Origin: Candidatus Eiseniibacteriota bacterium
Lineage (GTDB): Bacteria; Eisenbacteria; RBG-16-71-46; JABDJR01; JAWXBZ01
DNA length: 22,154 nucleotides
Reading direction: 5' to 3'
Assembly: GCA_034440375.1 (NCBI GenBank)
Contig: JAWXBZ010000157.1
Coordinates: 1 to 22,154 of the forward strand
Notes under the pieces: generated by a model
What the model saw: the letters and a program-made list of their open reading frames with translations, nothing else
Databases searched by the model: none
What the model was told of the DNA's origin: nothing
In this document: positions 1,684 through 14,995 of the stretch, piece after piece
Numbering within the stretch: position 1 is the first letter of the stretch
Layout of the letters: the number at the start of each line of letters is the position of its first letter
Translations under genes and position numbers: made by a program

Positions 1684-4600
1684 ATGTCGCGATCCGTAAT
1701 CGTCATCCTCGCAGCCATCATGCTGTCCGGGACCCTTCTGGCCCTGTCACACACACCTGCCCCGGCCTCGACCTGGGACGGCAAGGCAAAGCTGCTACTT
1801 CATGTGAAGGCCTTGACCACCAAGAGTGCCTGCACCTACGGCAAGCTGACTGACGCCCGACAGGCGAATACGCGGGGGGACGTGTATTCGTATTACCACG
1901 TCTACCTGCTCGCGGCCCGGGGTGATTCACCCGGCGTGGTGGGTGTCAGCACCGGCCTTACGTACGACAATGGATTTCCGAGTCAGATGTATGACTACTC
2001 CGGCGTGGACATTTACGGGTGGACCAACTGCGCCGACCTGGAATTCGTGCAGTCAGGTTGGCCAGCGCCCGGGAGCGGCAACCTGTTGACCTGGAACGAG
2101 TGTCAGGCATCCGAAACCGTTGTCGCCGGATACTTTTATGTCGGCATCTACAGCGCAGCGGAGATGTCGCTGACCTCACTTCCGTCGTCGTCTTCGGCCT
2201 CGGTAATGTCCTGTGACCAAAGCCAACGTCCGCAGACTGTCCTGGCCAGGGCCAACTTCACCAATGGCGCCTTGCCGTACGGCTGCAACCCGGCGCTTGC
2301 CAACTGCACGGATCCACCACCGGCACCGGGCCCGCCACCCGCCCTGGTTCTGGACTATCCCAACGGTGGAACGAATTGGGTTGTCGGTACGATTCAAACG
2401 GTTCGCTGGAGCGGCTCCGCCCGCGCGAACCTCTACTTCTCGGGTGATCTCGGGTTCACGTGGACATCAGTGGGCTCGAACCTGGGAGGACAACCGAGCA
2501 ACAGCTTCCTCTTTCCGGTCCCCAATACCAAAAATGATAACGCGCTTTTTCGCATTGCACCCTATTACCCAACTTCGGACTCCGCCCCGGATACATCCGA
2601 TGCCCCGTTCCGAATCGTCGAGGAGAAACCAACCCCGGCCGCAGCCTGTGTCCTTTCGGCTCAGCGATGGGGGGTTGCAGGAGACCGGCTCGGCTCCGCC
2701 ATGTCGGCGGCCGGCGATGTGAACCGGGATGGCTACTCCGACTTCGTCATTGGCGCACCCTTCGCCGACCAGTTCATGCCCGGCAGTGATACCGGGATAG
2801 CGTGGCTCGTGCTGGGAGGACCCTCGGGAGATCTCGTGCCCGACATTGAATTTCCGTCTGGTGGAGGCATGGGAATGTATGGCGCCGCCGTGACCGGCGG
2901 CGGTGACTTCAACGGCGACGGATTCGATGATGTCGCCGTCGCGGCCACCGGCAACGCCAGCGTGAAAATCCACCTGGGAGCGGCCATCCCGAACGGCTTC
3001 GAGGACTTCGTCATCTCACAGGGCACGCTCGGTTTCGGGAAGGCGATCGCATTCGTTGGTGACATGAACCGGGATGGGTTCGATGAACTCGCCATTGCGT
3101 CGCCCGATGACGGAATGGGTGGGCGGATCGACATTTTTCAGGGCGGCGCCGTGCCGAACGGAGTGGCGGATCTGACGATCACGGGAGCCCAGGCTGGCCA
3201 GGGCCTTGGAAGCTCCCTCTCCGGCGGCCACGACGTCAATGGCGATGGGTACGATGATCTGCTCGTGGGCGCCCCGGGGTTTGACGGCATCGCGGCGGAT
3301 ATAGGCCGCGCCGTGCTCTACTTTGGGGGCATCACACTGAACAGTGTCATCGATTGGGAATTTCGCGGGGCTGCGGTCAGCGACCGGCTTGGCGAGTCGG
3401 TGGCCATGGTTGGCGACACGGACGGCGACGGACGTTCTGATTTCGTCGTCGGTGCTCCCGGATCGGACGCTCGGACCCTCGACGGTGGTCGGGGCTTTCT
3501 TTTCTTCGGCGGCGCGCCGCCGGACATCCTTCCGGACCTGACGGTCGATGGATTGTCCTCGAGGGAGCAACTCGGTGCGGCCGTCGGAGGTGGCGTCGAC
3601 CTGAACGGCGACACCTGCCCCGACTTCGCCTTCGCCAGCCCATTCCTTGGGACGATCGGGACCGGCCGGGTCACGGTGTACTTCGGATCCACCACGCCAC
3701 GCCTGACGGCCGGGCTGCTCATCACCGCGGCTTCGGGGGACGGGCTCCTTGGCCTGAATCATTTTGGATCGACACTGGCATTCGCCCGCAACTTCGACGG
3801 TGACGGCTTCGGCGACATTCTCATCGGTGCCCCCAGGGGAACCGGCCCCGGCGGCGCGGACGCCGGTGATGTTCTGCTCCACGGGACCAGCCGTTACGTG
3901 CTGATGAATCCGAATGGCGGCGATAGCTGGAACGTGGGGGCCCGCCGCACCGTGAACTGGCTCGGCGCGGAGCCGGCCGATGTTCTCCTCTCGGTCGATG
4001 CCGGTGCCACGTGGAACGTCCTATCACAGGCGGTCGGCGGGTACTCGTCCAATGCCATCGCGGTCACCGTCCCACATCTGCCGACCCAGTACGCGATGGT
4101 GCAGATTCGTCCGGATGCCGCCACGGTGAACGGATCGGATCAATCTGCCGCAATCTTCGCCATCACCGCCTCGGTCATTCCGATGAACGTTCAGATAATT
4201 CCGCTGGCTGATGGAAGTGGCCGGACGGTCCGTTGGGAGACCGATCCCCCGGTCGGACCGGAGGGGATCGCCGGGTACCGACTCTACCGGCTTCGCGGTG
4301 AGGGAGACACGCAGGGGCAATCGATCGGACCGTCCCTGATCACGGAGACGGAATTTGTCGATCGCGACCTCGCCGACTGGGGCTACCGGCTGACCGCAAT
4401 GAACCACCTGGCGGAAGAACTCGAGCTGGCTCGCGTGGGAACCGGAAACGCTGCCACGACCCTTCGTATCGCGCCAAATCCGGCACGCGCTGGAACACCG
4501 ATCAGCATTGAGTTCACCATGCCTTTCCTGGCGAATGGCTCCCGATTGAACGACTTCGATGTTTCCATTTTCGATCTCAACGGGCGTCTTGTCCGGAACC

Positions 4601-4761
4601 TTGTAAGGGGCGTTGTCGAAGCCAACAGGGGTAATGTCGAACTCCGATGGGATGGTCTCACCGATTCAGGGAATTCGGCGTCCACGGGACTCTATTTTGT
4701 CCGGGCCAGCGATCCGTACGGGCGATTCGAGGTCCGACAGCGGCTTGTCCTGGTGCGATGA
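1684..4761 (+). CDS. Secreted multidomain protein: signal peptide, Cys-containing N-terminal domain, Ig-like PNGG domain, seven FG-GAP (integrin-alpha-like) repeats, second PNGG domain, FlgD-Ig/T9SS type A-like C-terminal domain
   Basis: 1025-aa ORF with SD AGGAGG at 1670-1675 and a hydrophobic N-terminus. Seven repeats of the type LGSAMSAAGDVNRDGYSDFVIGAP. C-terminus APNP...IFDLNGRLVRNL...WDG...GLYFVR...RLVLVR. Confidence 0.9.
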   Translation: MSRSVIVILAAIMLSGTLLALSHTPAPASTWDGKAKLLLHVKALTTKSACTYGKLTDARQANTRGDVYSYYHVYLLAARGDSPGVVGVSTGLTYDNGFPSQMYDYSGVDIYGWTNCADLEFVQSGWPAPGSGNLLTWNECQASETVVAGYFYVGIYSAAEMSLTSLPSSSSASVMSCDQSQRPQTVLARANFTNGALPYGCNPALANCTDPPPAPGPPPALVLDYPNGGTNWVVGTIQTVRWSGSARANLYFSGDLGFTWTSVGSNLGGQPSNSFLFPVPNTKNDNALFRIAPYYPTSDSAPDTSDAPFRIVEEKPTPAAACVLSAQRWGVAGDRLGSAMSAAGDVNRDGYSDFVIGAPFADQFMPGSDTGIAWLVLGGPSGDLVPDIEFPSGGGMGMYGAAVTGGGDFNGDGFDDVAVAATGNASVKIHLGAAIPNGFEDFVISQGTLGFGKAIAFVGDMNRDGFDELAIASPDDGMGGRIDIFQGGAVPNGVADLTITGAQAGQGLGSSLSGGHDVNGDGYDDLLVGAPGFDGIAADIGRAVLYFGGITLNSVIDWEFRGAAVSDRLGESVAMVGDTDGDGRSDFVVGAPGSDARTLDGGRGFLFFGGAPPDILPDLTVDGLSSREQLGAAVGGGVDLNGDTCPDFAFASPFLGTIGTGRVTVYFGSTTPRLTAGLLITAASGDGLLGLNHFGSTLAFARNFDGDGFGDILIGAPRGTGPGGADAGDVLLHGTSRYVLMNPNGGDSWNVGARRTVNWLGAEPADVLLSVDAGATWNVLSQAVGGYSSNAIAVTVPHLPTQYAMVQIRPDAATVNGSDQSAAIFAITASVIPMNVQIIPLADGSGRTVRWETDPPVGPEGIAGYRLYRLRGEGDTQGQSIGPSLITETEFVDRDLADWGYRLTAMNHLAEELELARVGTGNAATTLRIAPNPARAGTPISIEFTMPFLANGSRLNDFDVSIFDLNGRLVRNLVRGVVEANRGNVELRWDGLTDSGNSASTGLYFVRASDPYGRFEVRQRLVLVR

Positions 4762-9118: not shown

Positions 9119-9155
9119 CAGGTCCGAGGGTGTCGATTCGGATAGGATGCTTCGA

Positions 9156-11255
9156 ATGCTGACACACCGACAACGCGCCACCCGGGTGATATCGCCGTGG
9201 GCAGCCCCCCTCATCCTTCTGTTGTTCGGGGCGGCTGGTTGTGGCGAACAAACAGGACTCATACCCCGGAACCACCCGCCGCAAGTTCGACTGACCGGCG
9301 GCCCGGCAAATGGCGATTCGGCTGCCTTTGATGCCACTTTTCTCTGGCATGGCTGGGACGATGACGGGATCGTCGCCTCCTACCGGTACGGCCTCGTCAA
9401 CCTGATCGACCACCCGGAGGTGACCGGCCCCGCCGACATCCCGCCGGAGGGCTGGCGGGACACTCTGTCGACCCGGGCTTCGTTCGAACTTCGGAGTCCG
9501 CAGTCGACGGATGAGGACGGCGATGAGCCGACACAATTCTCGCTGGGCCGGCACCTCTTCGCCGTGCAGGCAATTGACGACGCGGGCGATTCGTCCACCG
9601 TCGACTGGCTGGTGGTGACCAGCCGGAACATCGTCCCACGGACGACGATCGACTATCCGAAGATCCCGGTCGAATCCGGCCTGGTGCAGTTTCGGGAAGG
9701 CGTGGAAATTCGCTGGTCGGGTGTCGATTCCGACAGCCCCGACCCCGGCCGGAAGCCCGTTGCCTACGAGTGGAAGGTCGTGCCCCTGGCCCCAAGCACA
9801 CCGGGATTCACGGTCAATGTGCACTATGCCGTCACGAATACACCCGGCCCCCAGTATCCATGGAATCGGGTCGACGGCACGGTTCGCTCGGTCCGGCTCA
9901 ACCTCCAGGCGGGTCAGGACTACGTCTTTGCGGTGCGAGGAATTGATCTGGTCGGCGGCGTCGAGGACTTGTTCGTGAAGGGGCAGAATGCCATTCCGTT
10001 TTCGGTGTCGAGCATCGACCTCTTCCGCCCCTATCTGACCCTGCGCGAGCCGCTGCTCGGGCAGTTCACCTTTCCGGCGGACGGACCGGTCTGGGAGGTG
10101 GAAGCGCCCATGAGCCGATGCCTCCGTTTCGAACTGACAGGCGACGCCTCGAACTACGGCGGAGCCATCTCGGCGTACAACTGGTGTGTCGATCCGCCTG
10201 ATGGTGGCCAGGAGGAGGAGTGCCGGGGCTGGACCGGAATTCGCACGACGGAATCGATCTGTTTTACGGAACCCGGTTTGCACACCATCGTCCTGAAGGT
10301 GCGGGACACGGCCGGTGCCGTCACCACGGGCCTTTTGCTGGTGAGAGCGATACCGGTGGTGCGGGACCGGCCGGTGCTCTACGTGGACGACTTTCGAGTA
10401 GCCAGGCGTGGCAGCGTGCTGGACGCCGATTGTGACCGGCGGATGCTGTCAATGCTGGGTGATGCCGGTTACGCCCCGGAGGACATTTACCAATGGCATA
10501 CGTTTGGCGAGGACGACCGGGAGATCGTGCCGGCACTTCCCCGATTGAGTGAGCTGACCACCTACAAGCTGCTGGTCTGGTCTGTGTCAGGAGCCGGTTT
10601 CAACGGGAACCCGGGACTTCTGCTGGTCAGTTCCTGTCCCGGCGCGCGCGTGCTTCGCTCCTACATGGACGACGGCGGCCAAGTCTGGATATCCGGGCAG
10701 AATGCCTTCAGCGCACTGATGGGGCAGGCGGGCTCGGTTTCACGCTGCGGCTCCGACTTCTCCTACTCCGAGAGCATCGGGCTCTTTCCGGGGCCGGACC
10801 ATTTCGTCTGCGCCTACCTGGGGCTTTGCGGCTGTGATATCCGAACGGTAAGGGATCGCTACATGATGGATGGCCTGGTCCGTGCCCTGCCCACGGCGGA
10901 AGCGATTCGCGAGGGCTTCCCGGACGTTTGGCTCGATTCGACACTCACCCATCCGAACCTGTCCGGTCTGATTGGGAGTGACGCTGTCTTCCAGCCGACC
11001 TTTGATGCCACGGGCGGCCTCGACACGCTCTACACGTCCTCGCCGACCGCCTCGAACTCGCGCTTCAGGGGACGTCCGGTCGCCTTCCGCTATTTCGACC
11101 CTGACCCGGGGGCCCGGACCGGCGCCATCGCCATCATGGGATTTCCGCCTCACCTCATGAAACCGGGGTCGGTGGCCGCCGGCACGGGCACGTCCACCCT
11201 TGCCTCGCGCCTGATCGATTGGTTCCGGCGGAACGAGCGGGCCGTGATTCGTTAG
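9156..11255 (+). CDS. Lipoprotein with three Ig/FnIII-like domains and a C-terminal alpha/beta domain, function unknown
   Basis: Lipobox LLLFGAAG-C (Cys codon at 9240). Repeated W-x-G-x-D-x-D ... F-x-V-x-[AG]-I-D-x-x-G modules. C-terminal PVLYVDD...LVWS...YMDDGGQVWISG. Start is 9156 (AGGA 8 nt upstream) or the in-frame ATG at 9147. Confidence 0.82.
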   Translation: MLTHRQRATRVISPWAAPLILLLFGAAGCGEQTGLIPRNHPPQVRLTGGPANGDSAAFDATFLWHGWDDDGIVASYRYGLVNLIDHPEVTGPADIPPEGWRDTLSTRASFELRSPQSTDEDGDEPTQFSLGRHLFAVQAIDDAGDSSTVDWLVVTSRNIVPRTTIDYPKIPVESGLVQFREGVEIRWSGVDSDSPDPGRKPVAYEWKVVPLAPSTPGFTVNVHYAVTNTPGPQYPWNRVDGTVRSVRLNLQAGQDYVFAVRGIDLVGGVEDLFVKGQNAIPFSVSSIDLFRPYLTLREPLLGQFTFPADGPVWEVEAPMSRCLRFELTGDASNYGGAISAYNWCVDPPDGGQEEECRGWTGIRTTESICFTEPGLHTIVLKVRDTAGAVTTGLLLVRAIPVVRDRPVLYVDDFRVARRGSVLDADCDRRMLSMLGDAGYAPEDIYQWHTFGEDDREIVPALPRLSELTTYKLLVWSVSGAGFNGNPGLLLVSSCPGARVLRSYMDDGGQVWISGQNAFSALMGQAGSVSRCGSDFSYSESIGLFPGPDHFVCAYLGLCGCDIRTVRDRYMMDGLVRALPTAEAIREGFPDVWLDSTLTHPNLSGLIGSDAVFQPTFDATGGLDTLYTSSPTASNSRFRGRPVAFRYFDPDPGARTGAIAIMGFPPHLMKPGSVAAGTGTSTLASRLIDWFRRNERAVIR

Positions 11256-12508: not shown

Positions 12509-14995
12509 ATGTCACTTTGTCGTCGTTTCTCACAGTTCGGCGCCGCACTGCTCGTCGCCTCGTTCTTGAACTCCCCCACGCTCGTCCGTGGGGCAGATCT
12601 TTCCGGAATCGTTCGAACGAGTGACGGGACACCGGCGGGAGCCGGATGGCGTGTCGTGGTGAACGGGCTCGACGCCCCCGGGGCGACCCTGGCACTGACG
12701 AACGAGGCTGGCTTGTTCCACCTGACCGGCCTTGGAAGCGGCCGGTCCACGGTGACGGTGCATGCGCCGTCGGAATTGGAAGCTGTTGCCGATCCACGGG
12801 CGGGTCGACTGATCCAGCTCGTCGGAGACCGCGCAACGACACTCGAACTGACGCTGAGTCCGGCCGCCACCGCTGCTCCAACCTTCAATTTCACCTTTTA
12901 TCGCGGCGAATACTGGAATAACCAGCCCACGGAGGAGTTGTCCACCGGCGTTCCACTCCCGGAGCAGGGCTCAGTCGGCAACATCGACATGGAACTGGCG
13001 GCCGGCGGGGGCACCATCTCGGGTCGGATCGTCCGGGATGTGGGCGGCACCGGCATCGCCGGGCTCGTCGTGGCGGCCTTTGGATATGACACCGGCGTCT
13101 TTTCGTTTGATCGCACGGACAGCGATGGATATTACCGGATAACCGGGATCCCGGCGGACGGCTTCCTCGTGACGGCCGGGCTCGCCTTCGCCGATCCGAG
13201 CGGTGAATTCGTGGGGGAGTATTACAATAATTCGCTGACCATCGCCTCATCGAGCATTGTCAATGTGAGCGATGGATCTGACACGCCGGAAATCAATTTT
13301 TCGCTCGGCCAGGGCGGCGCCATCTCGGGACGCGTGACGGCCCAGTCTGGCGGCCAGGGGCTGCCAAATGTTCTGCTCACCGCCTACGAAGTAACGCTCG
13401 CCCTGCAATACATCGCCCTGACCGACGACACGGGCCGCTTTCTCATCAATCGACTGCCACCTGGTTCGTGGAAAGTAGGGGCCAGTTCCGGTGCCAATTA
13501 CGCAGCGGAATTCTGGAACGACAGGGCTTCGTTCGAAACCGCCGATCTCATCGTAGTGTCCGCCGGCCCGCCCGCGCCCGACATCAATCTGGTCCTGGCC
13601 ACCGGCGGTGCTATCAGGGGGGTCATTACCCACGCGACCGGGGGACAGCCACTGGCGGACCTGATCGTCCTGGCCGAACGTATCGGGGACCAGCTGACCC
13701 GCACGGCCCGGACCGACCTGACGGGAACTTACGAAGTGCTCGGGCTTCCGACGGGGATGTACCGGGTGTACGTACCGGAGATTGGCAAGTGGTGGAATAA
13801 TCGCGGCGGCCCGGAAACGGCTGACCCGGTTGATGTGAGCCTGGGGATAATCACGGCCGGAATAAACTTTCAGGGTTTTCCGTTTGGCACGAACTGCACC
13901 GATGAGCCGCAGAACGTGGCATCGATTCGGGGCATGGTCCTGGATCAGGAGTTGAATCCACTCCCGGAGGCCATCCTTGGATTGTATGTGGATGTCCTGG
14001 GCACTGTGTTTCAGATCAACCTGACGACTACCGACATCAACGGCGCCTACGCGTTCACCTGTGTCCAGCCAGGAAACTACTTCATCAAATGCCGCGTACC
14101 GTTTTCGACGTACGTGAGCGAGTGGTATGACGACAAGAGCGTGGTCCGGCCCGATACGGTTCGCGCAGTCGCCGGCCAGGTGACCCAAAACATCGACTTT
14201 CTCCTCGGGACCGGCGGCACGATCGCCGGACGGATCACCACGGCCGGCGGCGCCCCGCTGCCACGTATCGAGGTATTCGTTCGCAATCGCACGACCGGGG
14301 AGATCGCCTCCGATTCCAGCGCAACGGATGGCACCTACTCCATCGCGGGGGGCCAGGAGGGGGGCCTGCCCGGCGGAACCTACACCGTCTGGGCGGAAGG
14401 ACGGAGCACCGCCGACCCATCATTGGTGCCGGTGGTGCTCTCGCACTTTACCGCCTCCGCATCCGCCGGCGGAGGTGTTGTCCTCCAGTGGACGACCAGC
14501 CATGAGGCCGATCACTCTGGATTCCACGTGGAACGAGCCGCCGCGCCGAACGCCCCGGGGACCCGACTGACCTCCGAATTGCTGCGTGGCGGTCCGGATT
14601 ATCGATTCGAGGACATCCTGGCGCTTGAAGGAGGCAACTCCTACTGGCTGCTCGCGATCGACCGACAGGGGCGCATCGAACGACTCGGTCCGGTGTCGAT
14701 TCAGGTTGGTCCGGTGCTGGGATCCCGATTCCTCGGCCCGGCCGCAAATCCGTCCGTCGGCAACGCCTCGATTCGCTGGGAAATGGGCAGCGAGGGCCTT
14801 GCTCGACTCCTCGTGTTCGATGCCGCCGGACGCTGGGTCCGCACGCTGGTTGATGAAGTTCGACCGGCCGGCGCCGGCGCCGCGTACTGGGATGGACGTT
14901 CGGCCGACGGCCAGGAGGTGGCGGCCGGGCTCTACTTTCTCCGCTTCGAGGCTGCTGGCAGCCAGGAGCGCGGGCGACTGATACTGGTTCGTTGA
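12509..14995 (+). CDS. Secreted carboxypeptidase-regulatory-like (transthyretin-like beta-sandwich) repeat protein with FlgD-Ig/T9SS type A-like C-terminal domain
   Basis: SD AAGGAGGT at 12493-12500 and a signal peptide. Repeats GGxIxGRV...TDxxGxY...GLPxGxYxV...E[YFW][YW]N[ND]...I[ND]FxL. Pre-CTD motif PVVLSHFTA...LQWTTSHEADHSGFHVER. C-terminus FDAAGRWVRTL...WDGR...GLYFLR...RLILVR. Confidence 0.88.
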   Translation: MSLCRRFSQFGAALLVASFLNSPTLVRGADLSGIVRTSDGTPAGAGWRVVVNGLDAPGATLALTNEAGLFHLTGLGSGRSTVTVHAPSELEAVADPRAGRLIQLVGDRATTLELTLSPAATAAPTFNFTFYRGEYWNNQPTEELSTGVPLPEQGSVGNIDMELAAGGGTISGRIVRDVGGTGIAGLVVAAFGYDTGVFSFDRTDSDGYYRITGIPADGFLVTAGLAFADPSGEFVGEYYNNSLTIASSSIVNVSDGSDTPEINFSLGQGGAISGRVTAQSGGQGLPNVLLTAYEVTLALQYIALTDDTGRFLINRLPPGSWKVGASSGANYAAEFWNDRASFETADLIVVSAGPPAPDINLVLATGGAIRGVITHATGGQPLADLIVLAERIGDQLTRTARTDLTGTYEVLGLPTGMYRVYVPEIGKWWNNRGGPETADPVDVSLGIITAGINFQGFPFGTNCTDEPQNVASIRGMVLDQELNPLPEAILGLYVDVLGTVFQINLTTTDINGAYAFTCVQPGNYFIKCRVPFSTYVSEWYDDKSVVRPDTVRAVAGQVTQNIDFLLGTGGTIAGRITTAGGAPLPRIEVFVRNRTTGEIASDSSATDGTYSIAGGQEGGLPGGTYTVWAEGRSTADPSLVPVVLSHFTASASAGGGVVLQWTTSHEADHSGFHVERAAAPNAPGTRLTSELLRGGPDYRFEDILALEGGNSYWLLAIDRQGRIERLGPVSIQVGPVLGSRFLGPAANPSVGNASIRWEMGSEGLARLLVFDAAGRWVRTLVDEVRPAGAGAAYWDGRSADGQEVAAGLYFLRFEAAGSQERGRLILVR

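Follow-up and report, generated by a model that had tools for sequence, protein, structure and literature searches.

Two orphan half-repeats at the ends of a circularly permuted CarboxypepD_reg array are predicted to pair into one sandwich in a Candidatus Eiseniibacteriota protein

We analyzed a 22,154-nucleotide stretch of DNA from Candidatus Eiseniibacteriota bacterium (GenBank assembly GCA_034440375.1, contig JAWXBZ010000157.1, positions 1 to 22,154 of the forward strand, termed the window) and in it a gene for an 828-residue protein whose array of transthyretin-like repeats appears to be circularly permuted. The array starts with the orphan second half of a repeat (O2), continues with four complete repeats (R1 to R4) and ends with an orphan first half (R5F), and structure predictions suggest that the two orphans pair into one sandwich. 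The most likely state, to which the models lead us to give about an even chance, is that O2 and R5F pair within one chain in a Velcro-like closure yielding a ring of five sandwiches. The layout of the gene is given below in window coordinates, with residue numbers of the encoded protein.

12509..14995, + strand: whole gene, 828 amino acids plus stop (open reading frame list and translation)
12509..12592, + strand: putative signal peptide, residues 1-28 (hydrophobic N-terminus, cleavage site placed from the sequence)
12593..12859, + strand: D1, residues 29-117, complete short (classical) transthyretin-like domain of seven strands (AlphaFold2 model, superpositions)
12884..12997, + strand: O2, residues 126-163, orphan second half, the last strands of a repeat (second-half hidden Markov model, HMM)
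13007..13306, + strand: R1, residues 167-266, complete repeat (half-HMM matches 167-223 and 230-266)
13313..13597, + strand: R2, residues 269-363, complete repeat (half-HMM matches 269-325 and 329-363)
13604..13876, + strand: R3, residues 366-456, complete repeat (half-HMM matches 366-423 and 423-456)
13877..13918, + strand: long R3-R4 linker, residues 457-470, holding the invariant Cys463 (alignment, AlphaFold2)
13919..14206, + strand: R4, residues 471-566, complete repeat holding Cys518 (half-HMM matches 471-529 and 531-566)
14213..14407, + strand: R5F, residues 569-633, orphan first half, strands A-E (first-half HMM)
14408..14428, + strand: short tail, residues 634-640, between R5F and the fibronectin type III (Fn3)-like domain (conservation, AlphaFold2)
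14429..14713, + strand: Fn3-like domain, residues 641-735 (FnIII superpositions)
14741..14992, + strand: C-terminal sorting-type domain (CTD), residues 745-828 (Pfam FlgD_ig)

The protein is a member of the CarboxypepD_reg family (PF13620), with a score of 137 bits over six stretches against a Pfam gathering cut-off of 32.3, and the related prealbumin-like families SdrD_B and SpaA also match it. Because circularity was to be avoided when scoring the orphans, HMMs of the "first half" and "second half" of the repeat were trained solely on R1-R4 of 20 aligned sequences (80 segments each). These models recognized residues 129-163 as a second half (independent E-value 6.7e-8, model positions 3-37 of 37) and residues 569-628 as a first half (1.2e-10, model positions 1-56 of 58), with four first/second pairs in between, and a weak first-half match was obtained at residues 28-84 (2.4e-3). 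When all halves were aligned with hmmalign, both orphans fell in register with the complete repeats. A strict G-G-x-I-x-G pattern matches at residues 167, 269, 366 and 569, the start of R4 at about residue 471 being devoid of it; motifs of the E[YFW][YW][ND][ND] type are located at residues 134, 237, 334, 427 and 538, and ends of the I[ND]x-x-L type at residues 159, 262, 359, 452 and 562. By these profile scores both orphan halves are real, far beyond chance, and jointly cover one repeat. An earlier reading of the window, made from the letters alone (the sequence-only reading), had placed an orphan second half at 12893-12997 (residues 129-163) and an orphan first half at 14213-14407 (residues 569-633) and had proposed that they add up to one repeat. 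Its coordinates are correct, its motifs lie where it put them, and the two half-HMMs together cover one unit as it had expected; the start of the second half alone has to be moved, to about residue 126, in view of the conserved F126, F128 and Y131.

A full-length AlphaFold2 model was computed from a 20-row alignment made of the query and 19 full-length relatives (identity span 34-71%), with a mean predicted local distance difference test score (pLDDT) of 81.0 and a predicted template modelling score (pTM) of 0.53. In superpositions by VIA-align, R2 (model residues 270-366) matched the transthyretin-like domain of human carboxypeptidase D, 5aq0_A, with Z 12.6 and a root-mean-square deviation (rmsd) of 1.7 Å over 81/81 residues, and R4 (model residues 471-569) matched 3e8v (Z 11.7, 82/82 aligned) and 2nsm (Z 11.9); R1 superposes on the B-type domains of SdrD/UafA (Z 8.9-9.1). 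As modelled, one complete repeat is one complete seven-strand transthyretin-like sandwich, in which the first half provides five strands and the second half the closing strands. Since a complete repeat corresponds to a complete fold, R5F alone would be an open sandwich without its last strands.

Both flanks of the two orphans are occupied by domains that are complete on their own. D1 (residues 29-117) has seven strands of its own in the model, and its residues 29-119 superpose on 1qmu_A (Z 10.5, rmsd 2.3 Å, 79 aligned) and on 5aq0_B (Z 10.3, rmsd 2.5 Å, 80 residues aligned to an 82-residue chain); the claim of the sequence-only reading that domain 1 is already complete is thus borne out by superposition on whole solved transthyretin-like domains. 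On the other side, FnIII superpositions begin at model residue 641-643 (Z 9.3-10.1, with 3mpc_A at Z 10.1 and 2ibb at Z 9.4), and the same Fn3-like and CTD module is found in the proteins P0040 and P0041, both without CarboxypepD_reg halves. R5F, which matches the first-half HMM only, is therefore an incomplete immunoglobulin-like (Ig-like) fold separated from the Fn3-like domain by a gap of about seven residues (634-640). Because D1 is whole alone and the Fn3-like domain starts about seven residues past R5F, neither orphan can be completed locally. The sequence-only reading had named the two local outcomes that would speak against it: for O2 folding into D1, D1 was found complete and O2 weak in a D1-O2-R1 fragment (see below), and completion of R5F by downstream residues was discarded on the start of the Fn3-like domain at residues 641-643. 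Less confident parts of the model are the N-terminal hydrophobic stretch (helix 5-20, pLDDT below 50), the R3-R4 linker (58 for residues 461-470) and the tail (72 for residues 631-640 and 62 for residues 641-650). A Foldseek comparison of the whole 828-residue model with the PDB returned generic multi-sandwich arrays only (template modelling score about 0.1, rmsd 15-100 Å) and is uninformative on packing.

In the full-length model O2 is confidently folded, with pLDDT values of 87, 90, 91 and 86 for the successive ten-residue blocks of residues 131-170 and the strand pattern of the other second halves, and R5F is modelled at pLDDT 87-94. An in silico deletion was made by refolding residues 29-268 (D1, O2 and R1) with the same relatives. 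In this fragment the blocks of residues 129-168 fell to pLDDT 60, 72, 77 and 62 and the strands were lost; D1 (mostly 81-93) and R1 (72-91) stayed mostly confident. The loss of confidence in the fragment implies that the confident fold of O2 depends on something past residue 268. In a two-chain prediction, residues 29-268 and residues 469-740 were presented as separate chains, each as an alignment and with the neighbouring domains kept. The interaction prediction score from aligned errors (ipSAE) was 0.67 (runs of 0.67, 0.65 and 0.68) against 0.00 for the best of three controls, which were unrelated proteins and not other second halves; in its calibration, 116 of 157 solved complexes and 2 of 215 mismatched pairs attained the mark for this score. 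Contact agreement between runs was at least 71% and partner pLDDT at least 71, the latter falling to 57 when an unrelated protein took the place of chain 2. The confident interface comprises O2 (residues 126, 128-136, 142, 145 and 147-165) and loops of R1 (195, 197-200 and 212-215) in chain 1, and R5F (568-581, 584, 587, 589, 591, 594 and 620-636) in chain 2. The residue pairs of lowest error place 159-163 on 572-577 and 148-150 on 622-627, which by the alignment of the halves corresponds to the last strand on the first strand and to the preceding V-x-V strand on strand E. CnaB/prealbumin-like sandwiches canonically pair their first strand with their last. The two-chain result supports binding of O2 to R5F as a prediction, without showing it. 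The core of the sequence-only reading, that the two orphan halves pair into one sandwich, passed every in silico test run.

The repeat family is huge: its cluster representatives number 56,170 at E <= 0.001 and still 1,722 at E <= 1e-30, including many giant arrays and some of more than 40 repeats. Full-length relatives of the protein are few: 17 proteins of 809-863 residues (36-71% identity, 89-100% coverage) and two more; the few named sources among the matches (P0008, P0053 and P0054) point to Candidatus Eisenbacteria. Writing F for a first half and S for a second half, the order (F)-S-FS-FS-FS-FS-F was found in 19/19 rows displayed, with exactly four whole repeats between the orphans; the twentieth row, P0183, aligns through both orphans, and gaps stay at 30% or less in both O2 and R5F in all 20 rows. 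O2 has a mean pairwise identity of 0.45 as compared to 0.38-0.46 in the four other second halves, and R5F one of 0.41 as compared to 0.37-0.59 in the other first halves. Over the 20 rows F128 and Y131 are invariant, F126, E134, Y135, I159 and L163 are at least 90% conserved, and the predicted O2-R5F contact positions are hydrophobic or glycine in every row. Covariation between O2 and R5F was examined by inspection of contact positions only, near-invariant positions in 20 rows carrying no signal. The pattern suggests that both orphans are under constraint; relics left by unequal crossing-over should look different. The most conserved segment of the whole protein is residues 634-643 (window 14408-14437), with a mean pairwise identity of 0.64 as compared to 0.28-0.59 in the folded domain segments. 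The family has just two invariant cysteines (20/20 rows), Cys463 (window 13895-13897) and Cys518 (14060-14062), and a disulfide between them may staple the R3-R4 linker to R4.

In a phylum sample of 151 genomes, the gene family was detected at E <= 1e-60 in two, the window's own genome (G000) and one of the same taxonomic family (G006), and thus contributed little new diversity. The latter carries two full-length copies, L002 and L003 (49% and 37% identity, L003 being the P0019 protein), with the same S-first/F-last layout and four whole repeats between the orphans in each, which implies that the gene family was duplicated with its layout already intact. A second copy is present in the window's own genome on contig C117 (L004:1438-2541, 44% identity to residues 23-355). 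It runs from the signal peptide through D1, an O2-like half and R1 to R2, where it ends; about 140 bases downstream lies an open reading frame of 344 residues (L004:2683-3717) that is transposase/integrase-like by eye, and this copy is probably an insertion-truncated paralogue. The expectation that homologues keep both orphans together held, since none was found with one orphan only save for this copy, which ends before the transposase-like frame.

The layout was compared to that of 164 other homologues with at least four half matches. A first half opens the array in 153 of them and a second half closes it in 98, the order being F...S in 94, F...F in 59, S...F in 7 and S...S in 4. Outside the orthologue group, 45 second-half matches had no detected first half: 11 were at the N-terminus (ten in gene calls that start mid-repeat without a signal peptide and one, in P0179, behind a divergent first half), and the remaining 34 were preceded by 40-237 residues that by eye resemble a divergent first half. 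First halves without a detected second half amounted to 669 of 2,643, a count uninformative on true orphans since the second-half HMM misses the short ending of the D1 type. Among the proteins sampled, the S-first/F-last layout is peculiar to this small Eisenbacteria-type orthologue group. No longer protein (1,450-4,140 residues) with a D1 and O2-like N-terminus was found at E <= 1e-5, a negative that the search tool itself rates as weak evidence.

From these calculated results (half identities, conservation, D1 completeness, the Fn3 boundary, the need of O2 for the C-terminal part and the strand pairing predicted for O2 and R5F) we infer cis pairing and a ring geometry as follows. The array would be circularly permuted as a whole, with the closing strands of a sandwich (O2) at its start and the first five (R5F) at its end, and the two would associate within one chain as a composite fifth sandwich, so that the order O2-R1-R2-R3-R4-R5F closes into a five-sandwich ring. 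Because the O2-R1 and R4-R5F linkers are of the ordinary 2-3 residues found between consecutive repeats, the composite domain would sit between R4 and R1 like an ordinary member of the array. The only break in the ring would be the cut E-F loop of this domain, where the chain would come in from D1 and go out to the Fn3-like domain and CTD. Closure in cis is taken as the solution of the model because, in the monomer, removal of the C-terminal part costs O2 its confident fold. The long R3-R4 linker with C463/C518 and the highly conserved tail of residues 634-643 would fit a rigid extracytoplasmic ring.

Several points weigh against this closed ring. The O2-R5F contact in the full-length monomer is deduced from confidence patterns together with the two-chain run, and the two-chain set-up, which by its design pairs the halves in trans, does not discriminate between cis and trans. 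A bias of structure predictors towards completing known folds is uncontrolled in the two-chain test, whose controls were unrelated proteins. The alignment is shallow (20 rows) and the pTM of 0.53 moderate, the other four AlphaFold2 models having mean pLDDT values of 75.8-77.1. Furthermore, O2 is not fully disordered in the D1-O2-R1 fragment (pLDDT 60-77), and the constant number of repeats is expected from orthology alone. Finally, VIA-align of the full model yielded no multi-domain ring analogue, multi-domain superpositions having rmsd of at least 7 Å and most above 13 Å.

That the orphans do not pair at all is an unlikely reading, but the one among the alternatives that we take most seriously. 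The two halves would be leftovers of unequal recombination in a beads-on-string stalk, each packing loosely on its neighbours or staying partly unfolded, and the predicted pairing would be an artefact of fold completion, to which predictors are prone. Tandem arrays of this repeat are indeed very common and plastic, as the 56,170 cluster representatives and arrays of more than 40 repeats attest, and O2 keeps a pLDDT of 60-77 when the C-terminal part is removed. Relics should however decay, yet over 34-71% identity the orphans are conserved like the halves of whole repeats, with core positions hydrophobic in 20/20 rows, and it would be odd to conserve half a sandwich of five strands whose core lies exposed. 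The 45 lone second-half matches elsewhere, moreover, are truncated-looking gene calls or lie behind divergent-looking first halves. An assignment of O2 as the true second half of D1, in which the last two strands of D1 would be an inserted hairpin and R5F the sole orphan, capped by the tail and the Fn3-like domain, strikes us as very improbable. It would account for the weak first-half match at residues 28-84 (independent E-value 2.4e-3), 44 residues before O2, as a linear F-S order. In its superpositions, however, D1 covers domains of about 80-82 residues with 79-80 aligned residues that include its own last strands, O2 lacks a confident fold beside D1 and R1 only and makes its confident contacts with R5F, and the Fn3-like domain is complete from residue 641; on the fold of the 29-268 fragment and the D1 superpositions this assignment was rejected.

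Complementation between chains, by which O2 of one molecule would complete R5F of the next and the exported molecules would swap domains in a dimer or polymerize head to tail, seems to us improbable. The sole direct prediction of pairing used two separate chains and passed (ipSAE 0.67 versus 0.00), an incomplete Ig-like fold completed from elsewhere is what donor-strand complementation achieves in pili, and a large CTD secretome is encoded in the genome together with a putative SprA-like translocon. Against it, the monomer model already gives a confident O2 with the C-terminal part in the same chain, which suggests that closure in cis is sterically possible, in which case proximity would favour it. 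No pilin, usher or chaperone family matched at E <= 1 in Pfam, and the neighbouring genes are housekeeping ones (holB, M23 peptidase, ftsX, ftsE, surA). We regard as slightly less probable again the stronger proposal of a new class of surface filament, a head-to-tail polymer formed after export by a route like that of type IX secretion systems (T9SS), with O2 inserting into R5F of the next subunit; were it true, it would represent two-to-three-strand complementation of a transthyretin-like domain, unrelated to chaperone-usher, type V and sortase pili. The sequence-only reading, which had left open whether the orphans close a ring within one chain or polymerize chains, stands in part: the pairing of the orphans is supported by the predictions, the intrachain ring is better supported than the filament, and its interpretation as a whole is only partly supported.

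The CTD carries a FlgD_ig match (PF13860) of 30.7 bits against a Pfam cut-off of 27 and a TIGR04183 (Por_Secre_tail) match of 16.9 bits, under the NCBIfam cut-off of 23; it is common to proteins named by their sources T9SS type A sorting domain proteins. The window's own genome (3.96 Mb) has 114 matches of the FlgD_ig type at E <= 0.001, of which 92 exceed the Pfam cut-off; an example locus is C34:46383-47600. SprA_N has one match in the same genome, in a 2,321-residue open frame, at 72.3 bits and above its cut-off, and the PorP family has a weak match (28.5 bits against a cut-off of 90.55); this check of T9SS machinery covered SprA_N, the PorP family and FlgD_ig. As judged by these matches, a very large CTD secretome and a putative T9SS-like translocon are present in this Eisenbacteria-type genome. 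The protein is probably secreted or located at the surface, plausibly through a T9SS-like route, and one might guess that the ring would act as a surface scaffold or binding platform.

The genes surrounding the gene for the 828-residue protein are housekeeping genes, namely metG, the gene of a PSP1 protein, holB, the gene of an M23 peptidase, ftsX, ftsE, surA and mfd, and no pilus-like machinery was found among the neighbours in the window. The window also encodes, at 1684-4761 on the + strand, a 1,025-residue FG-GAP repeat protein with the same FlgD_ig-type CTD. At 9147-11255 on the + strand lies a 702-residue open reading frame with a lipoprotein-like N-terminus, to which no Pfam family matched at E <= 1e-5 and whose end overlaps that of the convergent holB by 4 bases.

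The repeats themselves are ordinary CarboxypepD_reg repeats, and the protein stands out by its permuted array and by its predicted composite domain. Ordinary arrays of the E-Y-Y-N-N subtype, such as those of P0058 and P0060, have the same repeat unit, match the same half-HMMs and use the same 2-3-residue linkers, and the four central repeats are normal members among them. Those arrays however mostly start with a first half, whereas here the start is a second half and the end a first half, with a fixed four whole repeats between. Several known systems offer likenesses to the proposed closure. In the Velcro closure of beta-propellers, the last unit of the ring is built from the N- and C-terminal ends of the array, and the likeness would lie in a terminal unit made from both array ends and in a closed ring, which is predicted here; the unit in the present case would be a seven-strand sandwich split into about 5+2 strands instead of a four-strand blade, and the predicted ring would be one of five separate domains. 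In donor-strand complementation and exchange of chaperone-usher and type V pili, an Ig-like sandwich without its C-terminal strand or strands is completed by non-contiguous strands. Here, in contrast, a single polypeptide carries both donor and acceptor and would donate two to three strands, and the protein is without a lipoprotein-type signal peptide and has a T9SS-like CTD; the 15 Pfam (E <= 1) and 9 NCBIfam families that match it include none of fimbriae or pilins. Sandwiches made of discontiguous segments are also known in MG6 of complement C3/alpha-2-macroglobulin and in the D1 domain of RrgA, which share with the composite domain the building of one beta-sandwich from two sequence-distant segments; chains of that sort turned up in the structural comparisons as generic matches only. 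In those proteins the order is first part, insert, second part, whereas here it is second part, four domains, first part, and this order implies that the array itself must curve back and close. To our knowledge, the order of second half, whole domains and first half occurs in none of the propeller, pilus and C3/RrgA cases. A survey of titles and openings of abstracts, which is not proof, turned up nothing on this protein family, nor on a split sandwich that closes a ring of tandem ones.

If the pairing within one chain is true, it would be a new way to close a ring from ordinary Ig-like domains, in which one cut domain is re-formed by the ends of the array, and it would extend the Velcro principle of propellers from blades to whole domains. 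Such a protein would also be a natural template for the design of closed multi-domain scaffolds. It would further mean that a half-domain match at an array end can have a function; such matches are commonly written off as truncations or as noise in the annotation. Should the pairing instead occur between chains, it would represent a new principle of filament assembly, in a phylum about which little is known and, judging by this genome, with a very large CTD secretome.

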